In this document: piece after piece, positions 15,600 through 62,342 of the stretch
Layout: every line of letters starts with the position of its first letter
Numbering within the stretch: position 1 is the first letter of the stretch
From: a virus
Taxonomy: Duplodnaviria; Caudoviricetes
IMG/VR virus record: IMGVR_UViG_3300027282_000088
Span: 18,420 to 82,419 of that record
Direction: 5' to 3' (one strand)
Length of the DNA: 64,000 nucleotides
The notes under the pieces: generated by a model
What the model saw: the letters and a program-made list of their open reading frames with translations, nothing else
Database searches by the model: none
What the model was told of the DNA's origin: nothing
Position numbers and translations under genes: made by a program

Positions 15600-17069
15600 A
15601 TGGCGCTGATCACCACGAATCTTAAAGCTCAGTTCGAGACAACCAACACGGTTGTCTCCCCGACGCTGTGGGTGGACGAAGTCGCCGGGATTGAGCTAGT
15701 CCAAGAACACCTTATGACTGCGCCAGTGTTGCGGACAGGCGAAGAGGGAACACCTACTGGAGCGAGTTATTTTCAGTTTGTCGGTAGCATTGACGGACTT
15801 GGGAATGACACCTTATACGACCACGATCTGCCAGACGGGGCGGAGCCTCGTACGATGTACATCGTTGCCCGTTATCCTAACCAAGTGAACGCCGGTAACT
15901 TCAACGGCGTGATGTATGGCAATCCCTCTACGCGCCAGGCATTCGGTATGGTGATGAGCGGCACTGAAAAAGTGCTCACCGACTTCTGGGCGGCCAGCTA
16001 TGCGTCGGTCGATAGTTTCAACGATGACCTTTGGCATGTGCTAGCGGTCACTTTTGACGGGGAAGATGTTGAAGGGTTCATCGACAACGTGAACCTGATG
16101 GGCGGCACCCCGGCCACGCTCAACACGGTACTGGAACGCCTCTATATCAATTACAAACTCAGCAACAACAGCGGTGCCTTCATGGATTGTGCCGCTGTTT
16201 TGATCTATGCCGGGGCGCATAATCCGGCGCAGTTGGCTGAGACGAACGCCTATCTTCGCAACAAGTATATCGAGGAAATCCCTAGTGGCGGTGGGACGGT
16301 TGTTTCTGAGCGCGCCGCATCGAGTGGCGGCACCTCGGGTCTGAACGCCGCTCCTGTCTCCGTGCTCTCACGAACCGCATCGAACGGCGGCACATCGGGA
16401 GCTACGGCGGCCCCCGTTATCGTGCAGGGCCGCGCTGCGACCTCCGGCGGAACATCTGGTGCCGACGCGGCAGCCACTCTCGTCTCGGGTCGCGCTGGCG
16501 CATCCGGCGGCACCTCTGGCGCGTCTGCAAGCCCTGTCCGGATCGCCACGCGCAGCGCACCGGGCGGCGGCGCGTCGGGCTCGCCTGCGGCCCCTGTGCA
16601 GGTCGCGCTGCGCGGGGCATCAAGCGGCGGCGCGTCGGGATCCGAGGCCTTGCCCCAGGCGGGCACTCAAACAAGCCGCGGCGCCACGTCAGGAGGCGCA
16701 TCTGGGTCTGAGGCTATGGCGGTCCGTGTGCAGACGCGCAGCGCCTCCAGCGGCGGGGTCTCTGGCACCGGGGCCATGGCCGTGCATGTCAGCGTCAAGG
16801 CGGCGGCGTCAGGAGGGCTGTCAGGGGCAGAGGCCATACCCGCCGCAGTCACACTGCGCGCGGCCAACGCTGGCGGTGTGTCCGGCCTCACAGCCGAACC
16901 CACGCTGATCGCGGCCCGGTCTGCGGTCTCGGGAGGCACATCCGGGTCAGAGGCCGCACCCGCTGACACAAGCCGGGTGGTGGATTTCAGGGCAACGGCG
17001 CTCTGGGATGAACCACGCTTTACCGCTCTTTGGGATGAGCCACGTTTTGTGGCCGAATGGAGAGACTGA
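15600..17069 (+). CDS. putative fibre: LamG/lectin-like N-domain plus 11 ~20-aa RxAxSGGxSG repeats
   Basis: ND..WHVL.VTFDG...GFID lectin-like pattern; Gly/Ser/Ala repeats; ALWDEPRF x2 tail. Confidence 0.65.
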   Translation: MALITTNLKAQFETTNTVVSPTLWVDEVAGIELVQEHLMTAPVLRTGEEGTPTGASYFQFVGSIDGLGNDTLYDHDLPDGAEPRTMYIVARYPNQVNAGNFNGVMYGNPSTRQAFGMVMSGTEKVLTDFWAASYASVDSFNDDLWHVLAVTFDGEDVEGFIDNVNLMGGTPATLNTVLERLYINYKLSNNSGAFMDCAAVLIYAGAHNPAQLAETNAYLRNKYIEEIPSGGGTVVSERAASSGGTSGLNAAPVSVLSRTASNGGTSGATAAPVIVQGRAATSGGTSGADAAATLVSGRAGASGGTSGASASPVRIATRSAPGGGASGSPAAPVQVALRGASSGGASGSEALPQAGTQTSRGATSGGASGSEAMAVRVQTRSASSGGVSGTGAMAVHVSVKAAASGGLSGAEAIPAAVTLRAANAGGVSGLTAEPTLIAARSAVSGGTSGSEAAPADTSRVVDFRATALWDEPRFTALWDEPRFVAEWRD

Positions 17070-17533: not shown

Positions 17534-17752
17534 ATGAGGCGATTCGATTTGGAAGGTCTAGAACTGCGTTGCTGCGCATGCAGCCGTTTGCTATTTAAAT
17601 ATCAGAGAGGGGCGCAAATATCCGGCGTCTCGATCAAATGCCCGCGCTGCCGGGCGATGAATATCCTGAGGCCAAGAGCCCTTCCCCAAACGCGCGATGC
17701 GCAGAGAGAAGGAGCCAAACTTGACCAGATCGACCACACTCCCGAAACCTGA
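17534..17752 (+). CDS. com: Mu Com-like zinc-finger regulator
   Basis: LRC..C.RLLFK...IKCPRC CxxC..CxxC; at the right end as in Mu; the exact start may be the TTG a few codons later. Confidence 0.85.
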   Translation: MRRFDLEGLELRCCACSRLLFKYQRGAQISGVSIKCPRCRAMNILRPRALPQTRDAQREGAKLDQIDHTPET

Positions 17753-17903
17753 GCTGCCGCCCGGTGCGCCGGGCCTGCCCAAAGGCGTCCGCTACCGGCG
17801 GCAATATGGCGTCATCGTCCTCCTCGAGGACGAGGTGGCTCAAATCAACGCCTTCGGCCGGTTGCGCCGCCAAGGCTTCAAATGCCGCGTGGTGGTCACA
17901 TGA
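17721..17903 (+). CDS. small conserved protein (60 aa) coupled to the ABC-GNAT gene
   Basis: AAGGAG RBS plus TTG inside com; QYGVIVLLEDE..Q...F.RL..QGFKCRVVVT; ATGA overlap with the next gene. Confidence 0.75.
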   Translation: MTRSTTLPKPELPPGAPGLPKGVRYRRQYGVIVLLEDEVAQINAFGRLRRQGFKCRVVVT

Positions 17904-19009
17904 AGCTCGCCATCCACCACGCCAGCCCCATCCCGGATACCTACCGCGCCGCCCGGGTCTCCAGCCTCTTCAACGTCGAGGGCGACGCGGATTTCCGCAT
18001 CGAGGTCGAGGCCGATCTGGCAGCACAGCCCTGGCAGATAGGCCTCATCGTCGGCCCCTCTGGCAGCGGGAAATCCTCGCTCGCCCGCGAAGCCTTCGGA
18101 GCGGAGCTTGACCCGCGCCCGTGGCCCGAGGGCGCGCTGATCGACGCGATTGACCCCGAGGGCGAATTCGACGCCGTCGCGGCCGCCCTCTCCGCCGTGG
18201 GCCTCGGCACGGTGCCCAGCTGGCTGCGCCCCTATCCCCACCTCTCCACCGGCGAGCAGTTCCGGGCCGAGCTCGCGCGCATTCTGGCCGAGCGGCCGAG
18301 CTTTGCCATTCTCGACGAGTTCACCTCGACCATTGACCGGCGCGTGGCCCAGATCGGGGCGGCAGCCTTTGCCAAGGCATGGCGGCGGGGCTCTGGCCAG
18401 TTCGTCGCCGTCACCTGTCACGAGGACGTCGTGTCCTGGTTGCAGCCCGATTGGGTGATCGACACCCGCCGGGCCGAGTTTCGCTGGAGGCGTCTTCGAC
18501 GGGCACCCCGCATTGCCATGGACATTCACCAGACAGACGGCTCCTTCTGGCCCGCCTTTGAGCCGCATCACTACCTGAAGCTGCCCCGCATGATCGCGGC
18601 CAATTACTACGTGGGCTTCGTCGACGGCGCACCGGTGGCGCATCTGGCCGTCTCGACCCGGCCGGGGCTGGTCGAAGGCCGCGCCTGCCGCCTTGTCGTC
18701 ATGCCTGAGTGGCAGGGCGCGGGGCTGGGGCTGCGCTTTCTCAACGAGGTTTGCGCGCTCTGGCGGCGCGGCGTGAACCGCTACGACAAACCGATGCCGA
18801 TGCTGTTTCACACCTCGCATCCCGGCCTCGCCGCCGCCCTGCGCCGCGATCCCCTCTGGGCACAGGTTTCGGCCATCCTCTATGCCGAGGCCAAGGAACG
18901 CAGCATGAAGACCCTCGCCGCCGCCCGGGCACGCAAAGGCCTCAAACCCGCCGGGAGCGGCTACGGCGGGCATTTCCGCGCGGTGCAGGGCTTTCGGTAT
19001 GTCGAGTGA
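17900..19009 (+). CDS. ABC-type ATPase fused to a GNAT acetyltransferase
   Basis: Walker A GPSGSGKS, signature LSTGEQ, Walker B ILDEF, H-loop TCHED; GNAT motif A RLVVMPEWQGAGLG; no permease nearby. Confidence 0.85.
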   Translation: MKLAIHHASPIPDTYRAARVSSLFNVEGDADFRIEVEADLAAQPWQIGLIVGPSGSGKSSLAREAFGAELDPRPWPEGALIDAIDPEGEFDAVAAALSAVGLGTVPSWLRPYPHLSTGEQFRAELARILAERPSFAILDEFTSTIDRRVAQIGAAAFAKAWRRGSGQFVAVTCHEDVVSWLQPDWVIDTRRAEFRWRRLRRAPRIAMDIHQTDGSFWPAFEPHHYLKLPRMIAANYYVGFVDGAPVAHLAVSTRPGLVEGRACRLVVMPEWQGAGLGLRFLNEVCALWRRGVNRYDKPMPMLFHTSHPGLAAALRRDPLWAQVSAILYAEAKERSMKTLAAARARKGLKPAGSGYGGHFRAVQGFRYVE

Positions 19010-19033
19010 GGGGGGTGTTAAAGGGGCGTTGAA
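19010..19033 (-). repeat. tandem 12 bp motif
   Basis: Reverse complement ttcaacgcccct-ttaacacccccc immediately after the ABC-GNAT stop. Confidence 0.7.
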
Positions 19034-19336
19034 ACAGCCCCTCATGTTCCTTCCCAATGATCGGTGTCAGGCGGTAGCCGATCGAGATCAAACTCCCAGC
19101 TAGCCGACGCAGCACGAGCAGGAAGGGCGGAAAGCGGAAGTTCGCTATGGGTGCGAGGCCTGAAAACCATAGTTTCTAGGCGGATATTCATTTGGCCAAT
19201 CTCTTATGCCTTCGTGTTGGGCCAGCGATTGGCCCTCGACTTGGACTTGATGAGCAATCAGTCGCGACGTTTTTCTGATGTGCAACGGTCAAATTTGGTT
19301 TAGGGTCCCCCGAAAAGGCAGCGGCGAATTCGACCA

Positions 19337-20233
19337 ATGTACACAGATAGAACTCGCGACCACCACAAGGATGCGGCGATTGCTCGCCTTTTTTCGGCCG
19401 GCGTTGTTAGAGAACTTGCTGAAAAAGGCAGCTCTGCCAAGTTTAGCTCGTTGGTAAATCAAGCTGAACTATTCGAACTTCAAGAAGTTCGCACCGTCGG
19501 TGACGCGTTTGACTTTGGCTTCGCTCAATTACGCCGAAGTGGCCTCCGAAATGAATACATTTATCAGTCGGCTATAGTTCAAAACGTGCTCTTAGGTAAA
19601 CATTCCCTGAAAACAGCCAGTATGGTGAGAGAGTTTCGAACTGGAGCTAGCAGAGCGGATGTTGTCATATTGAACGGCACATCTACAGTCTATGAGGTTA
19701 AATCCGAACGTGACAGTCTCCAGAGACTTGAGAAACAACTAGAAGACTACGCCGATATATTTGCTCGTACGTATGTAATTGCTTCAGAACGTCACATCAA
19801 CGCGATAAAAGAGCTCGCGCCGCTTCACGTAGGCGTTATGTATCTGAAAAGATGGAATAGCATAAGCACAGTTAGAGAAGCCGTCGATCGGCCAGACGAA
19901 GTTAAACCACTCAGCATTCTGGGGGCTCTTCGAAGAACTGAGGCAATTCGTATTCTCAAACACATAGGCAAGCCTGTACCTTCCGTGCCAAACACTCAGA
20001 TGTTTAGCGCGCTTTCAGAACTCTACGAACGCCTTGATCCAAGAGAAGTCCATGACGCAATGGTTCAGGTGCTCAGGCAGAGCCGAACACAACATTCTTT
20101 CCAGAGACTCGTCGAAGATCTACCTTTATCGTTGCATGCCGCCGCATTGATGTACAACTTAAGGCTAAGTGACGGGGCAAAACTGGTGCAAGCCATTAAA
20201 ACTCCAATCGAACAATCAATATTTTGGAGTTAG
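19337..20233 (+). CDS. sce7726-family protein (PD-(D/E)xK nuclease-like)
   Basis: EF..G.SRADVV.LNGTSTVYEVKSERD.L.RL..QL..Y motif; lower GC than the phage genes. Confidence 0.75.
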   Translation: MYTDRTRDHHKDAAIARLFSAGVVRELAEKGSSAKFSSLVNQAELFELQEVRTVGDAFDFGFAQLRRSGLRNEYIYQSAIVQNVLLGKHSLKTASMVREFRTGASRADVVILNGTSTVYEVKSERDSLQRLEKQLEDYADIFARTYVIASERHINAIKELAPLHVGVMYLKRWNSISTVREAVDRPDEVKPLSILGALRRTEAIRILKHIGKPVPSVPNTQMFSALSELYERLDPREVHDAMVQVLRQSRTQHSFQRLVEDLPLSLHAAALMYNLRLSDGAKLVQAIKTPIEQSIFWS

Positions 20234-20241
20234 GATGTTAA

Positions 20242-21189
20242 ATGTACTTTCCATACTTTCGCGGTAAGCAATTTGAGCTCATCACTATTCGAGATACCGC
20301 AGAATTGCTGGCGAAGGCTGGTTTCATACCCATAATTGAACCCGTAAAAGAAGCACTGAAGGGGTTGACCCGTGCGCTTGACGCGGTTTGTGAAAGCGGT
20401 GGGCATGCGATCGTAATAGTGAATCCTCAACATGGAAGCTTAGCTGGAAATGGAGCCGCAATATCGACTTTTCTCAAGGAAGGCTATCTTGAGACCGACA
20501 ACGTAAGCGCTGGCATCTTATTGACGGATACGATGACGGTAATAGATGCCATGACGCTTTTTGAAGCTCATACAAATCATAGGCCGTATTTTATTCACTC
20601 GGGCTTTCTGCAGGAAAACGGCCTCGCAGAAAAACTTGGGGACGAGCTCAGTCATACACGACATGTCTTCATCGAACAGGCTAGCCCTGTATTATACCGA
20701 AAGAAGTTCAGCAGTGCTTCTCGAGTGCTGCTTCGGGATGGATTCAACAAACAGCGGAATGCTAGTTATCCTGCTGTTGAGCTTTTTTCAGATTTGCATG
20801 TAACATTTAATTCCGAGTTGGGTTTGAATGGTTTTGGAGACTTCCTAACTGTCGGGGATGACTATAGTGAGACAGGTGGACCTGCTTATGCCGTCGCCAT
20901 TCACATGACGTTCATTGATCCAGACAAAGACGATCAGATGTACGTGCGCCATTTTGTGTCAGATTCAAATAGCACTCCAACGGATCCTGCTGGAAAGTTC
21001 GCAGAAGCGCTCTCTAAGCTGGTCACGAAGTTCAATCACGGAACATCAAACCTGTTTCATGGTAAGGCTTTATCTGAGTTCCTAGAGTTGCATGCAAAAC
21101 AACACTTTCCAGGGCTGGGTCAGGTTAAAAAACTTTCGATGATCCATCACATTGAGACACTGGCAGACTATTTTTCTGAGGCGAATTGA
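20242..21189 (+). CDS. sce7725-family protein (Beta-protein-like)
   Basis: MYFPYFRGKQFEL start, GFGDFLTVGDDY...GGPAYAVAIH, FPGLG..KKLSM.HH motifs; paired with sce7726. Confidence 0.75.
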   Translation: MYFPYFRGKQFELITIRDTAELLAKAGFIPIIEPVKEALKGLTRALDAVCESGGHAIVIVNPQHGSLAGNGAAISTFLKEGYLETDNVSAGILLTDTMTVIDAMTLFEAHTNHRPYFIHSGFLQENGLAEKLGDELSHTRHVFIEQASPVLYRKKFSSASRVLLRDGFNKQRNASYPAVELFSDLHVTFNSELGLNGFGDFLTVGDDYSETGGPAYAVAIHMTFIDPDKDDQMYVRHFVSDSNSTPTDPAGKFAEALSKLVTKFNHGTSNLFHGKALSEFLELHAKQHFPGLGQVKKLSMIHHIETLADYFSEAN

Positions 21190-22253
21190 TGCCAAATAAA
21201 TGCTGCCCAAACTGTTTTGGGGACCGTGGACTCGAAAAACACCTGTTTCAATTTCTGGCTACAGAATTGGCGAAAGGGGATTGTAATTATTGCGGAGACC
21301 CTTCGGACAAACTTGTTGAACCGTCGGAGCTTTCTGATGTTTTTGAGCTGCTAGTCGAATCTTATGAAGAAGCTGAAGGCGGTGTAAGTCTTGTGGCAAA
21401 CTTCAAAAAGGACTGGGGGCTTTTCTCTCATGCCAAAATGGACGAAGCACACGCCAAAGAACTACTTTCCGATATTTTAGATGATGGAGAGATCGTTCGA
21501 AAGTCGTTTAGACCCTTGACCGCGCCGGATGACTCTAAGGTCGGTGATTGGCTTGAACTTCGTCAAGAACTTCGCTTCAAGAATAGGTATTTTCTAGACG
21601 AAAAAATTAAGGAAGAACGGTTGAAGCTTTTGCTCGAGTTCTTGCTTTCAGCACCGCTAGAAAAGATCTGGTTTCGAGCCAGGATCTCGCCTGATAATCA
21701 GCCTTTCGATGCCCAATCGATGGGAGCGCCACCAAAAGGTTCCGCTTCCCACGGAAGAGCCAACCCCGCAGGCATTCCGTATCTCTATCTTGCATCTGAT
21801 GAGAACACAGCGATTTCGGAAATACGCCCTCATACGGGTGAATTCGCGACCGTTGCAGAATTTGAGCTGCGTGAAGGACTTACAATCGTCGATTTACGAT
21901 CACCTAAGACACTCGTCTCTCCTTTTATCTGTGGATCTTCCGATGAGATTGTTCAGCTTAGGGCAGACTTGCCGTTCCTAGAAAGTCTGGGCCACGAACT
22001 CACTCGTCCGGTGCTGCCCCGCAGCGCCGCAACTGACTACGTTCCAAGTCAATATCTCTGCGAGTTTATAAAGAAAAAAGGATTTGACGGTGTACTTTAT
22101 ACGAGTTCTGTGGGGACGGGAAAGAACTTGGCCCTCTTCGATACCGAAGCGGCAAATTGCATACGAGTATCCGTTTTTAGTGTCGCTAGCGTTGCAGTCA
22201 CCGCTCATGAGTTTCGCACACAGGTTCGCCCGTTGGAGCGCGTTGAAAATTAG
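21189..22253 (+). CDS. RES-domain protein with N-terminal Zn-ribbon (NAD+-consuming toxin fold)
   Basis: CPNC...CNYC; FRAR, GRANP.GIPYLYLA...TA.SE.RP, Y.PSQYLCE.IK..GFDGV.Y.SS. Confidence 0.85.
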   Translation: MPNKCCPNCFGDRGLEKHLFQFLATELAKGDCNYCGDPSDKLVEPSELSDVFELLVESYEEAEGGVSLVANFKKDWGLFSHAKMDEAHAKELLSDILDDGEIVRKSFRPLTAPDDSKVGDWLELRQELRFKNRYFLDEKIKEERLKLLLEFLLSAPLEKIWFRARISPDNQPFDAQSMGAPPKGSASHGRANPAGIPYLYLASDENTAISEIRPHTGEFATVAEFELREGLTIVDLRSPKTLVSPFICGSSDEIVQLRADLPFLESLGHELTRPVLPRSAATDYVPSQYLCEFIKKKGFDGVLYTSSVGTGKNLALFDTEAANCIRVSVFSVASVAVTAHEFRTQVRPLERVEN

Positions 22254-59948: not shown

Positions 59949-60167
59949 ATGAGGCGATTCGATTTGGAAGGTCTAGAACTGCGTTGCTGCGCCTGCGGCC
60001 GTTTGCTATTTAAATATGAGAGAGGCGCGCAAATATCCGGCGTCTCGATCAAATGCCCGCGCTGCCGGGCGATGAATATCCTGAGGCCAAGAGCCCTTCC
60101 CCCAACGCGCGATGCGCAGAGAGAAGGAGCCAGACTTGGCCAGATCGACCACACTCCCGAAACCTGA
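59949..60167 (+). CDS. com: Mu Com-like zinc-finger regulator
   Basis: CACGRLLFK...IKCPRC. Confidence 0.85.
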   Translation: MRRFDLEGLELRCCACGRLLFKYERGAQISGVSIKCPRCRAMNILRPRALPPTRDAQREGARLGQIDHTPET

Positions 60168-60318
60168 CCTGCCGCCCGGTGCGCCGGGCCTGCCCAAAGG
60201 CGTCCGTTACAGGCGGCAATATGGCGTCATTGTCCTCCTCGAGGACGAGGCCGCCCAAGTCGACGCCTTCGGCCGCCTGCGCCGTCAGGGCTTCAAATGC
60301 CGCGTGGTGGTGACATGA
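60136..60318 (+). CDS. small conserved protein coupled to the ABC-GNAT gene
   Basis: AAGGAG plus TTG; paralog of 17721. Confidence 0.75.
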   Translation: MARSTTLPKPDLPPGAPGLPKGVRYRRQYGVIVLLEDEAAQVDAFGRLRRQGFKCRVVVT

Positions 60319-61424
60319 AGCTCGCCATTCACCACGCCAGCCCCATCCCGGACACCTACCGCGCGGCCCGGGTCTCCAGCCTCTTCAACGTCGAGGGCGA
60401 CGCGGATTTCCGCCTCGAGGTCGAGGCTGATTTGGCGGCACGCCCGTGGCAGATCGGCCTCATCGTCGGCCCCTCGGGCAGCGGGAAATCCTCGCTCGCC
60501 CGCGAAGCCTTTGGCGCTGAGCTTGATCCGCGCCCGTGGCCCGAGGGCGCGCTGATCGACGCGATTGATCCCGAGGGGGAATTTGATGCTGTCGCGGCGG
60601 CGCTCTCGGCCGTGGGCCTTGGCACGGTGCCGAGCTGGCTGCGCCCCTTCCGCCACCTCTCGACCGGCGAGCAGTTCCGGGCCGAGCTCGCGCGCATTCT
60701 CGCCGAGCGGCCGAGCTTTGCCATTCTCGACGAGTTCACCTCGACCATCGACCGGCGCGTGGCCCAGATCGGGGCGGCCGCCTTTGCCAAGGCATGGCGA
60801 CGCGGCCCCGGCCAGTTCGTCGCCGTCACCTGTCACGAGGACGTGGTGTCCTGGTTGCAGCCCGATTGGGTGATCGACACCCGCCGGGCTGAGTTCCGCT
60901 GGAGGCGTCTTCGACGGGCACCGCGCATTGCCATGGACATTCACCAGACGGACGGCTCCTTCTGGCCCGCCTTTGAGCCGCATCACTACCTGAAGCTGCC
61001 CCGCATGATCGCGGCCAATTACTACGTGGGCTTTGTCGACGGCGCACCCGTGGCGCATCTCGCCGTCTCGACCCGACCGGGGCTGGTCGAGGGCCGCGCC
61101 TGTCGCCTCGTCGTCATGCCCGAGTGGCAGGGCGCGGGGCTGGGCTTGCGGTTTCTCAACGAGGTCTGCGCCCTCTGGCGGCGCGGCGTGAACCGCTACG
61201 AGAGGCCCATGCCGATGCTCTTTCACACTTCGCACCCCGGCCTTGCCGCCGCCCTGCGCCGCGATCCCCTCTGGGCGCAGGTCTCGGCCATCCTCTACGC
61301 CGAATCGAAGGAGCGCAGCATGAAGACCCTCGCCGCCGCCCGGGCGCGCAAGGGGCTCAAGCCCGCCGGGTCAGGTTATGGCGGGCATTTTCGCGCCGTG
61401 CAGGGGTTTCGCTATGTGGAGTGA
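60315..61424 (+). CDS. ABC-type ATPase fused to a GNAT acetyltransferase
   Basis: 8 substitutions in 369 aa versus 17900-19009. Confidence 0.85.
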   Translation: MKLAIHHASPIPDTYRAARVSSLFNVEGDADFRLEVEADLAARPWQIGLIVGPSGSGKSSLAREAFGAELDPRPWPEGALIDAIDPEGEFDAVAAALSAVGLGTVPSWLRPFRHLSTGEQFRAELARILAERPSFAILDEFTSTIDRRVAQIGAAAFAKAWRRGPGQFVAVTCHEDVVSWLQPDWVIDTRRAEFRWRRLRRAPRIAMDIHQTDGSFWPAFEPHHYLKLPRMIAANYYVGFVDGAPVAHLAVSTRPGLVEGRACRLVVMPEWQGAGLGLRFLNEVCALWRRGVNRYERPMPMLFHTSHPGLAAALRRDPLWAQVSAILYAESKERSMKTLAAARARKGLKPAGSGYGGHFRAVQGFRYVE

Positions 61425-62068: not shown

Positions 62069-62120
62069 CCTGAGCCCCGCATCGCTTCCATCTCAAACGC
62101 CGCGCGCTAAGCCGCAAGTG

Positions 62121-62342
62121 AAACCGATGCCGATGCTCTTTCACACCTCGCACCCCGGCCTCGCCGCAGCGCTCCGCCGCGATCCCCTCTGGGCACAGGT
62201 CTCGGCCATCCTCTACGCCGAGTCCAAGGAGCGTAGCATGAAGACCCTCGCCGCCGCCCGGGCGCGCAAAGGCCTCAAACCCGCCGGGACCGGCTACGGC
62301 GGCCATTTCCGCGCCGTGCAGGGGTTTCGGTATGTGGAGTGA
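62121..62342 (+). pseudogene. 3' remnant of a third ABC-GNAT allele
   Basis: KPMPMLFHTSHPG...FRYVE* with no N-terminal part; mixes A-type, B-type and unique residues. Confidence 0.85.

Follow-up and report, generated by a model that had tools for sequence, protein, structure and literature searches.

A Com-linked ABC-ATPase/GNAT cassette in the mom slot of two Mu-like prophages, predicted to acylate phage DNA

Given that the final operon of two Mu-like prophages carries a 60-aa ORF and an ABC-ATPase/GNAT fusion behind com, the question arises of what this enzyme acts on and how its expression is gated. We analyzed a 64,000-nt stretch of viral DNA (hereafter, the window), which comes from an 82-kb IMG/VR provirus record and contains both prophages. 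Prophage 2 encodes a MuA-type protein (phrog_310, E 7e-157) and a MuB-type protein, together with terminase, major head protein, tape measure and central fibre genes; the presence of the MuA and MuB homologues bears out the original prediction that the cassette occupies the mom slot in a Mu-like prophage. The final operon of prophage 1 (17534-19009, + strand) consists of com, the 60-aa ORF and the 369-aa fusion gene, which agrees with the composition and coordinates given previously, and an equivalent operon of prophage 2 lies at 59949-61424. The features discussed below are as follows.

17534..17752 (likelier start 17549), + strand: com of prophage 1; Cys4 zinc ribbon, Pfam PF10122
17676..17716, + strand: predicted RNA hairpin at the 3′ end of com; folds and covariance model R1
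17721..17903, + strand: 60-aa putative adaptor ORF of prophage 1; phrog_28816 and hhalign match to ParB partners
17900..18499, + strand: ABC-ATPase domain, residues 1-200; Pfam ABC_tran, motifs and AF2 model
18512..19009, + strand: GNAT domain, residues 205-369 plus stop; weak Pfam Acetyltransf_1/7 and fold matches
19010..19036, + strand: right end of prophage 1 with GGGGTGTT-type repeats; similarity to prophage 2 ends at 19033
59949..60167, + strand: com of prophage 2; 93% amino acid identity to copy 1
60136..60318, + strand: small putative adaptor ORF of prophage 2; similarity to copy 1
60315..61424, + strand: ABC-GNAT fusion of prophage 2; 8 of 369 residues differ from copy 1, dN/dS 0.041
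62118..62342, + strand: solo 3′ remnant of ABC-GNAT; last ~73 codons of a third copy

The two copies of the enzyme differ at exactly 8 residues, as had been counted before. Their coding sequences carry 73 synonymous and 11 non-synonymous changes (dN/dS 0.041), the dN/dS of the small ORF is 0.094, and both genes are under purifying selection. Similarity between the prophages stops ~24 nt past the enzyme stop codon. The tail tips had been described as unrelated; this holds for the C-terminal parts of the central tail-fibre proteins, whereas their first ~600 residues are 37% identical. The absence of a permease was also confirmed, since none was found near the operon, which is bordered by tail genes upstream and by the prophage end downstream. 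Around the operon, neither a sigma-70-like promoter nor a noteworthy terminator was found. Among the sequencing runs listed with matches, subsurface and rock-porewater DNA metagenomes were represented, and none was an RNA run.

Further features of the surrounding sequence were recorded. Between the prophages, dS is 0.046 in com (17534-17720) versus 0.31 in the small ORF and enzyme (17754-19006); this jump suggests a recombination breakpoint at the junction of com with the genes behind it, and would fit the exchange of com and its operator as a cassette. Upstream of the operon, a 489-aa protein (15600-17069) contains about a dozen ~17-residue Ser/Gly/Ala-rich repeats (..SGGTSG..A.PV..) and ends with a duplicated TALWDEPRF; no PHROG matched this protein, which presumably belongs to the tail fibre or tip. 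Immediately after the right end of prophage 1 lies a low-GC island (19337-22253; 46-53% versus ~65%) with three co-oriented genes, a possible defence or mobile island between the prophages. Two of the gene products fall into the sce7726 (E 2.7e-51; PADLOC ‘cll’ 4.5e-19) and sce7725 (E 4.2e-101) families, and the third, of 355 aa, has no family. The remnant at 62118-62342, 0.7 kb past the right end of prophage 2, is 96-97% identical to the ABC-GNAT end and is followed by GGGGTGTT-type prophage-end repeats; it is left over from an earlier Mu-like insertion or from a deletion.

The first gene of the operon was readily assigned. The com product matched Pfam Zn_ribbon_Com (PF10122; 33.1 bits versus a cut-off of 22.9, E 3.9e-8) as well as phrog_6417 and phrog_13819 (‘gpCom’), and its cysteines C8, C11, C31 and C34 (numbered from TTG 17549) are invariant in 15 homologues, consistent with a putative Cys4 zinc-ribbon translational activator. 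Its reading frame has an ATG at 17534 and an alternative TTG at 17549, the latter preceded by GAGGCGAT. Because in relatives the reading frame of the upstream ATG is interrupted by stop codons, com probably starts at the TTG.

The 3′ end of com contains a predicted hairpin (17676-17716), the 3′ arm of which is the Shine-Dalgarno (SD) sequence of the small ORF, GAAGGAG (17708-17714), and its consensus reads GAGCCCUUC ... ACC ... [GCGC-loop-GCGC] ... GG ... AAGGAG. A plain MAFFT alignment analyzed with RNAalifold yielded a weak consensus (-1.62 kcal/mol), because the subfamilies are offset from one another by one or two columns; the hairpin statistics were taken instead from folds of the individual sequences and from an alignment to a covariance model. 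In the per-sequence folds, the SD was paired with a probability of at least 0.9 in all 15 related sequences examined, and a covariance model of the hairpin, R1, matched 40 loci. The inner stem is 89% paired, and two of its four pairs show compensatory changes (GC to AU or UA; CG to AU, GC or UA); in the outer helix, which hides the SD, pairing in the covariance-model alignment reaches only 62%. The covariation score of the hairpin was 0.154 versus 0.094 in shuffles (reached in 0 of 500) and lay above all slid controls, whereas the fold of the 131-nt region was no more stable than that of shuffles (z -0.05). A predicted hairpin with a covarying inner stem hides the start region of the putatively Com-regulated gene. 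This structure is presumably the Com operator, that is, a translation-inhibition structure, and by analogy with Mu com-mom, Com most likely opens it.

The small ORF starts with a TTG at 17721, behind GAAGGAG and 32 nt inside com, and its stop codon overlaps the ATG of the enzyme (ATGA, 17900-17903). Its 60-aa product matches phrog_28816 and is conserved in 14 loci at 33-92% identity, with the core R-Y-x-x-Q-[FY]-G-V-I-V ... D-E-x-x-Q ... G-x-K-C-[RK]-V-V. Comparison with the ParB-like partner proteins of other loci (hhalign 99.2%, E 2.9e-19) indicates that the 60-aa protein corresponds to the C-terminal ~43-residue domain of ~190-250-aa ParB_N partners; the ParB_N domain itself was detected in 19 of 26 ParB-like partners. 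Single-chain proteins with the order ParB_N - small domain - ABC - GNAT also exist (e.g., P0027 and P0034), and from these gene fusions we infer that the adaptor contacts the enzyme. A model of the ParB-small-ABC-GNAT fusion (pLDDT 89.2, pTM 0.74) yielded no match for the small domain in a fold search, and a search for longer fused homologues returned only three, uninformative matches. Since the Mu-like variant is without ParB_N, it has no recognisable DNA-binding domain.

The enzyme (369 aa from the ATG at 17900) matched phrog_11143 (‘unknown function’) over its full length (E 2.3e-131; residues 8-374 versus profile positions 2-349 of 357), and its Pfam matches at E<=1 comprised only the ABC_tran/AAA and Acetyltransf_1/7/10 families. 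Across 84 homologues, Walker A (G52-S59), the signature (L115-Q120), Walker B (D139-E140), the D-loop, H174 of the H-loop and GNAT motif A (Q272-G277) are invariant; the acyl-CoA motif A (QGAGLG) is encoded at 18713-18730. The individual residues invariant in these sequences include S54, G55, G57, K58, L115, S116, G118, D139, E140 and H174 in the ABC part, and R264, V266, P269, Q272 and G273 in GNAT beta4/motif A. The original prediction of a GNAT acetyl-CoA-binding motif fused to an ABC ATPase is thereby supported. Its ‘complete ABC motif set’ is correct for Walker A, the signature, Walker B, the D-loop and the H-loop but slightly overstated, because no Q-loop glutamine is visible in the enzyme.

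The AlphaFold (AF2) model of the enzyme (pLDDT 91.5, pTM 0.87) comprises two domains. Residues 1-200 matched EcfA (VIA Z 13.5, rmsd 4.3, 183 aligned) as well as other nucleotide-binding domains, and the likeness is to transporter-type, ABCE and ABCF domains rather than to the SMC/Rad50/MutS class; Foldseek with the whole model returned ABC transporter nucleotide-binding domains only. Residues 205-369 form a compact GNAT (VIA Z 14.6 to 1y9k, rmsd 2.6, 128 aligned; Z 14.1 to RimI 5isv). The top GNAT matches, which include an IAA acetyltransferase, RimI and Naa50, are effectively tied at Z 12.3-14.6 and none is a nucleic-acid enzyme; being tied and generic, they do not identify the substrate. PADLOC likewise gave only partial, generic ABC matches for the enzyme (mad3 over 79 residues), so the cassette does not correspond to a known defence protein.

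To place the cassette within its family, homologues and their neighbourhoods were surveyed. In the PHROG 11143 family, 506 clusters at 50% identity reach E<=1e-30. More than 570 matches were obtained in IMG/VR, and species-representative genomes from many phyla contributed more than 590. The nearest genomic relatives are in Roseovarius (96-99% identity). In Roseovarius mucosus DSM 17069 (L186) and R. lutimaris (L187), the matches begin at residue 113 or 105 (93-99% identity) and may represent truncated copies in related genomes. Another side observation is an intein (Hint plus LAGLIDADG homing endonuclease) just past the ABC Walker A region of a 715-aa homologue (P0131).

The neighbourhood survey covered 80 IMG/VR loci, 77 of them with enough upstream sequence and 66 with room downstream. 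The small domain is encoded directly upstream in 75 of the 77 loci; in 37 of them it is a stand-alone ORF, and in 38 it forms the C-terminal part of a ParB_N protein. A formyltransferase (PF00551-type) lies directly downstream in 48 of the 66 loci (~73%); this Fmt/PurN-type partner carries an HPSLLP motif. The com gene was found in all 17 close relatives; among the 80 more distant loci it occurs in 13, each time beside a stand-alone small ORF. The recurrence of com linkage, which had been proposed as a check, is thus established, although it remains a minority context, and most family members follow a ParB-like gene adjoining terminase. Because the upstream small domain is near-constant and ParB_N, formyltransferase and com are variable, the small domain and ABC-GNAT form an obligate core to which the other three are optional additions; the formyltransferase is accordingly accessory to the module and does not define it. 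No formyltransferase homologue was found anywhere in the 82-kb provirus record, and the cassette of the window is the minimal core plus com, without formyltransferase. Formyl-CoA supplied by a partner formyltransferase was ruled out as a general acyl donor, as the gene is missing here. The module lies directly before terminase in Gordonia and Streptococcus phages. In Streptococcus phage 315.4 (L020), ABC and GNAT are annotated as two genes and are followed by an ASCH-domain gene before terminase.

We then asked what occupies the slot behind com in general, taking the gene that overlaps the 3′ end of com in 79 com-bearing IMG/VR loci (from the best 80). The small ORF with ABC-GNAT was found in 9 of the 79 loci and Mom in 3. 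The other 66 com loci scanned encode DNA methyltransferases in about 60 cases, 27 of them D12 N6-adenine, 26 N6_N4 and 7 C5-cytosine enzymes. The element described by model R1 also precedes a D12 methylase (L108), C5 methylases (L109, L115 and L119), an N6_N4 methylase (L114), a ParB_N-methyltransferase (L159) and a true Mom (L117; PF25680, E 4.8e-41). On the basis of these loci, com and its operator appear to be a portable switch placed before DNA-modifying enzymes, with ABC-GNAT as one interchangeable cargo. Since the com slot elsewhere holds almost only DNA-modifying enzymes, DNA is, by guilt by association, most likely the target of ABC-GNAT as well. The ParB_N partner and the adjacency to terminase are further pointers in this direction; a class of phage DNA thymine dioxygenases requires a ParB partner (PMC13229309). 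In two other loci (L111:2590-3555 and L113:2665-3666), the R1 operator is followed by 322-334-aa proteins without a Pfam match, which are candidates for further Com-gated modification enzymes.

Our preferred reading, to which we assign a probability of roughly 55%, is that the cassette performs a Com-gated, ATP-dependent acyl transfer, probably from an acyl-CoA, onto phage DNA. Late in the lytic cycle, Com would bind the mRNA at the 3′ end of com and, by opening the hairpin, expose the ribosome-binding site of the small ORF; translation of ABC-GNAT would then follow by coupling across the ATGA overlap. The adaptor would bind the enzyme. All ABC ATPases dimerise on ATP, and the ABC domains of the cassette would do so while holding or scanning the substrate. 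The GNAT domain would transfer an acyl group to an exocyclic base amine in the phage DNA before packaging, and the marked DNA would then be protected from host nucleases. The donor is probably acetyl-CoA or another acyl-CoA because the Q-x-x-G-x-G motif is intact. Several observations speak against this reading: the best GNAT matches include no nucleic-acid enzyme, the ABC domain is closer to transporter-type domains than to the SMC/Rad50/MutS class, and the Mu-like variant is without the ParB_N domain. As ~73% of the other loci encode a formyltransferase that is absent here, the chemistry may differ between variants. A more specific version, in which the cassette writes an N-acyl mark (e.g., N-acetyl) on a DNA base by means of a DNA-clamping ABC dimer and a 60-aa minimal ParB-derived loader, is tentative, and we place it somewhat below even odds. 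We know of no such chemistry described for any phage genome. If the N-acyl version is correct, com and the hairpin would constitute a portable translational switch for any host-toxic DNA-modifying enzyme.

Other acceptors were weighed against DNA. Late in infection, the enzyme might acetylate a protein of the host or of the phage, such as a nucleoid, restriction, ribosomal or virion protein, with the ABC part serving as an ATP-dependent substrate clamp. Protein acetyltransferases such as RimI and NatA/Naa50 are indeed among the nearest GNAT structures (Z 12.4-14.1), but these scores are tied with those of small-molecule GNATs and hence non-discriminating. There are known cases of phage GNATs acting on host proteins, such as Rac (PMC7824862); the com slot and the ParB_N partner nevertheless point to DNA, and we regard a protein acceptor as unlikely. 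Less probable again is the acylation of RNA or aminoacyl-tRNA, either as an analogue of TmcA/NAT10-like ac4C formation or with the GNAT acting on the alpha-amine of a charged tRNA, the same amine that the Fmt-like formyltransferase of other loci would use. Coupling of an ATPase to a GNAT follows the logic of TmcA, the Fmt/PurN-type enzyme with its HPSLLP motif is a frequent partner, Mom takes its donor from glycyl-tRNA (PMC13219725), and the gene after the module in Streptococcus phage 315.4 encodes an ASCH domain, as does YqfB, which hydrolyses N4-acetylcytidine (PMC6972931). However, the enzyme shows no GNAT_acetyltr_2, helicase or tRNA-binding matches, the formyltransferase is absent from the cassette analyzed here, and DNA is favoured by the link to ParB and by the com slot. 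The enzyme moreover has an intact acyl-CoA motif A, which tRNA-dependent Fem-type GNATs are not known to have.

It is very improbable that the gene is a prophage moron encoding an orphan ABC-transporter ATPase or a resistance-type acetyltransferase that takes no part in nucleic-acid modification. Databases do read relatives as ‘ABC transporter ATP-binding protein’ or as an iron-siderophore transporter, and the sequence matches of the enzyme include nucleotide-binding domains of transporters (E 1e-7 to 1e-9). A permease is nevertheless missing from the operon and from every surveyed locus, the Q-loop glutamine is not visible, and the gene is linked to the small/ParB domain and to phage late/packaging genes across many phyla, with its translation apparently gated by Com.

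If acyl transfer onto phage DNA is the correct reading, Mu-like phages would have a third enzyme chemistry, after methylation and momylation, for their Com-gated anti-restriction slot. It would also be a new class of DNA hypermodification, the product of an enzyme family that occurs in hundreds of phage lineages from more than 10 bacterial phyla. The Mu-like form is the smallest, with two proteins and neither ParB_N nor formyltransferase, and is therefore the most convenient to reconstitute. The shared com/hairpin cassette also provides a simple rule for finding further DNA-modifying genes, for example those behind com in L111 and L113.

The same function has been predicted before. According to section 3.4.7 of PMC7824862, Iyer, Zhang, Burroughs and Aravind (NAR 2013) predicted that a phage GNAT coupled with an ABC ATPase acylates a DNA base, so that the description of the cassette as a candidate new modification system does not hold in this respect. 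The accompanying statement, that ATPase-GNAT fusions had been noted computationally without biochemistry, agrees with our literature searches, which found nothing relevant on the biochemistry of the ABC-GNAT family or on acetylated phage DNA. The predicted PHROG 11143 system and the enzyme of the window share their family, their ABC+GNAT architecture and their phage/prophage distribution. The form in the window differs from the system elsewhere in that ParB_N is reduced to a 60-aa stand-alone adaptor, the formyltransferase is lacking, and the pair, putatively controlled by Com, closes the right end of a Mu-like prophage. Specific to this analysis are the Mu-like minimal form, formal evidence for the 60-aa protein as the adaptor domain of the ParB partner, the com operator common to methylase and Mom loci, and the quantitative survey of the com slot.

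The likeness to Mu com-mom extends to the position as last operon of a Mu-like genome, the Com zinc ribbon, the SD within a hairpin and the GNAT fold. In both, the regulated gene starts inside com, with an overlap of 32 nt here and 80 nt in Mu, whereas the ABC ATPase and the separate adaptor are additions of the present cassette. The acyl-CoA motif is intact in ABC-GNAT, whereas Mom uses glycyl-tRNA as its donor, and an HTH-like insertion in the Mom GNAT fold is required for momylation (PMC13219725). The enzyme model aligns with compact 145-160-residue GNATs and has only a C-terminal basic helix and a loop (331-360) of lower pLDDT. The ABC-GNAT family profile reached an hhalign probability of 0.3% against Mu Mom, and Pfam Mom (PF25680) was not among the enzyme matches at E<=1 in a library that does detect Mom in L117; the suggested likeness to Mom is therefore limited to the shared GNAT fold.

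TmcA/NAT10 is an ATP-dependent cytidine N4-acetyltransferase of RNA. The cassette resembles it in coupling an ATPase to a GNAT, and NTP-dependent base-amine acetylation is a plausible analogy, but the ATPase is of the ABC class here and helicase-type there, and the context points to DNA, not tRNA. Pfam searches at E<=1 found no GNAT_acetyltr_2, helicase or tRNA-binding domains in the enzyme, and the earlier comparison with TmcA/NAT10-type enzymes was not supported at the domain level. Finally, in about half of the loci, the cassette resembles the ParB-dependent T-dioxygenases (PMC13229309) and ParB-methyltransferase fusions in having a ParB_N partner upstream or fused. In the window, only the C-terminal ~43-residue adaptor is left of this partner and the catalytic chemistry is of another kind; a further trait that the module shares with these ParB-dependent DNA-modifying enzymes is its location beside terminase.
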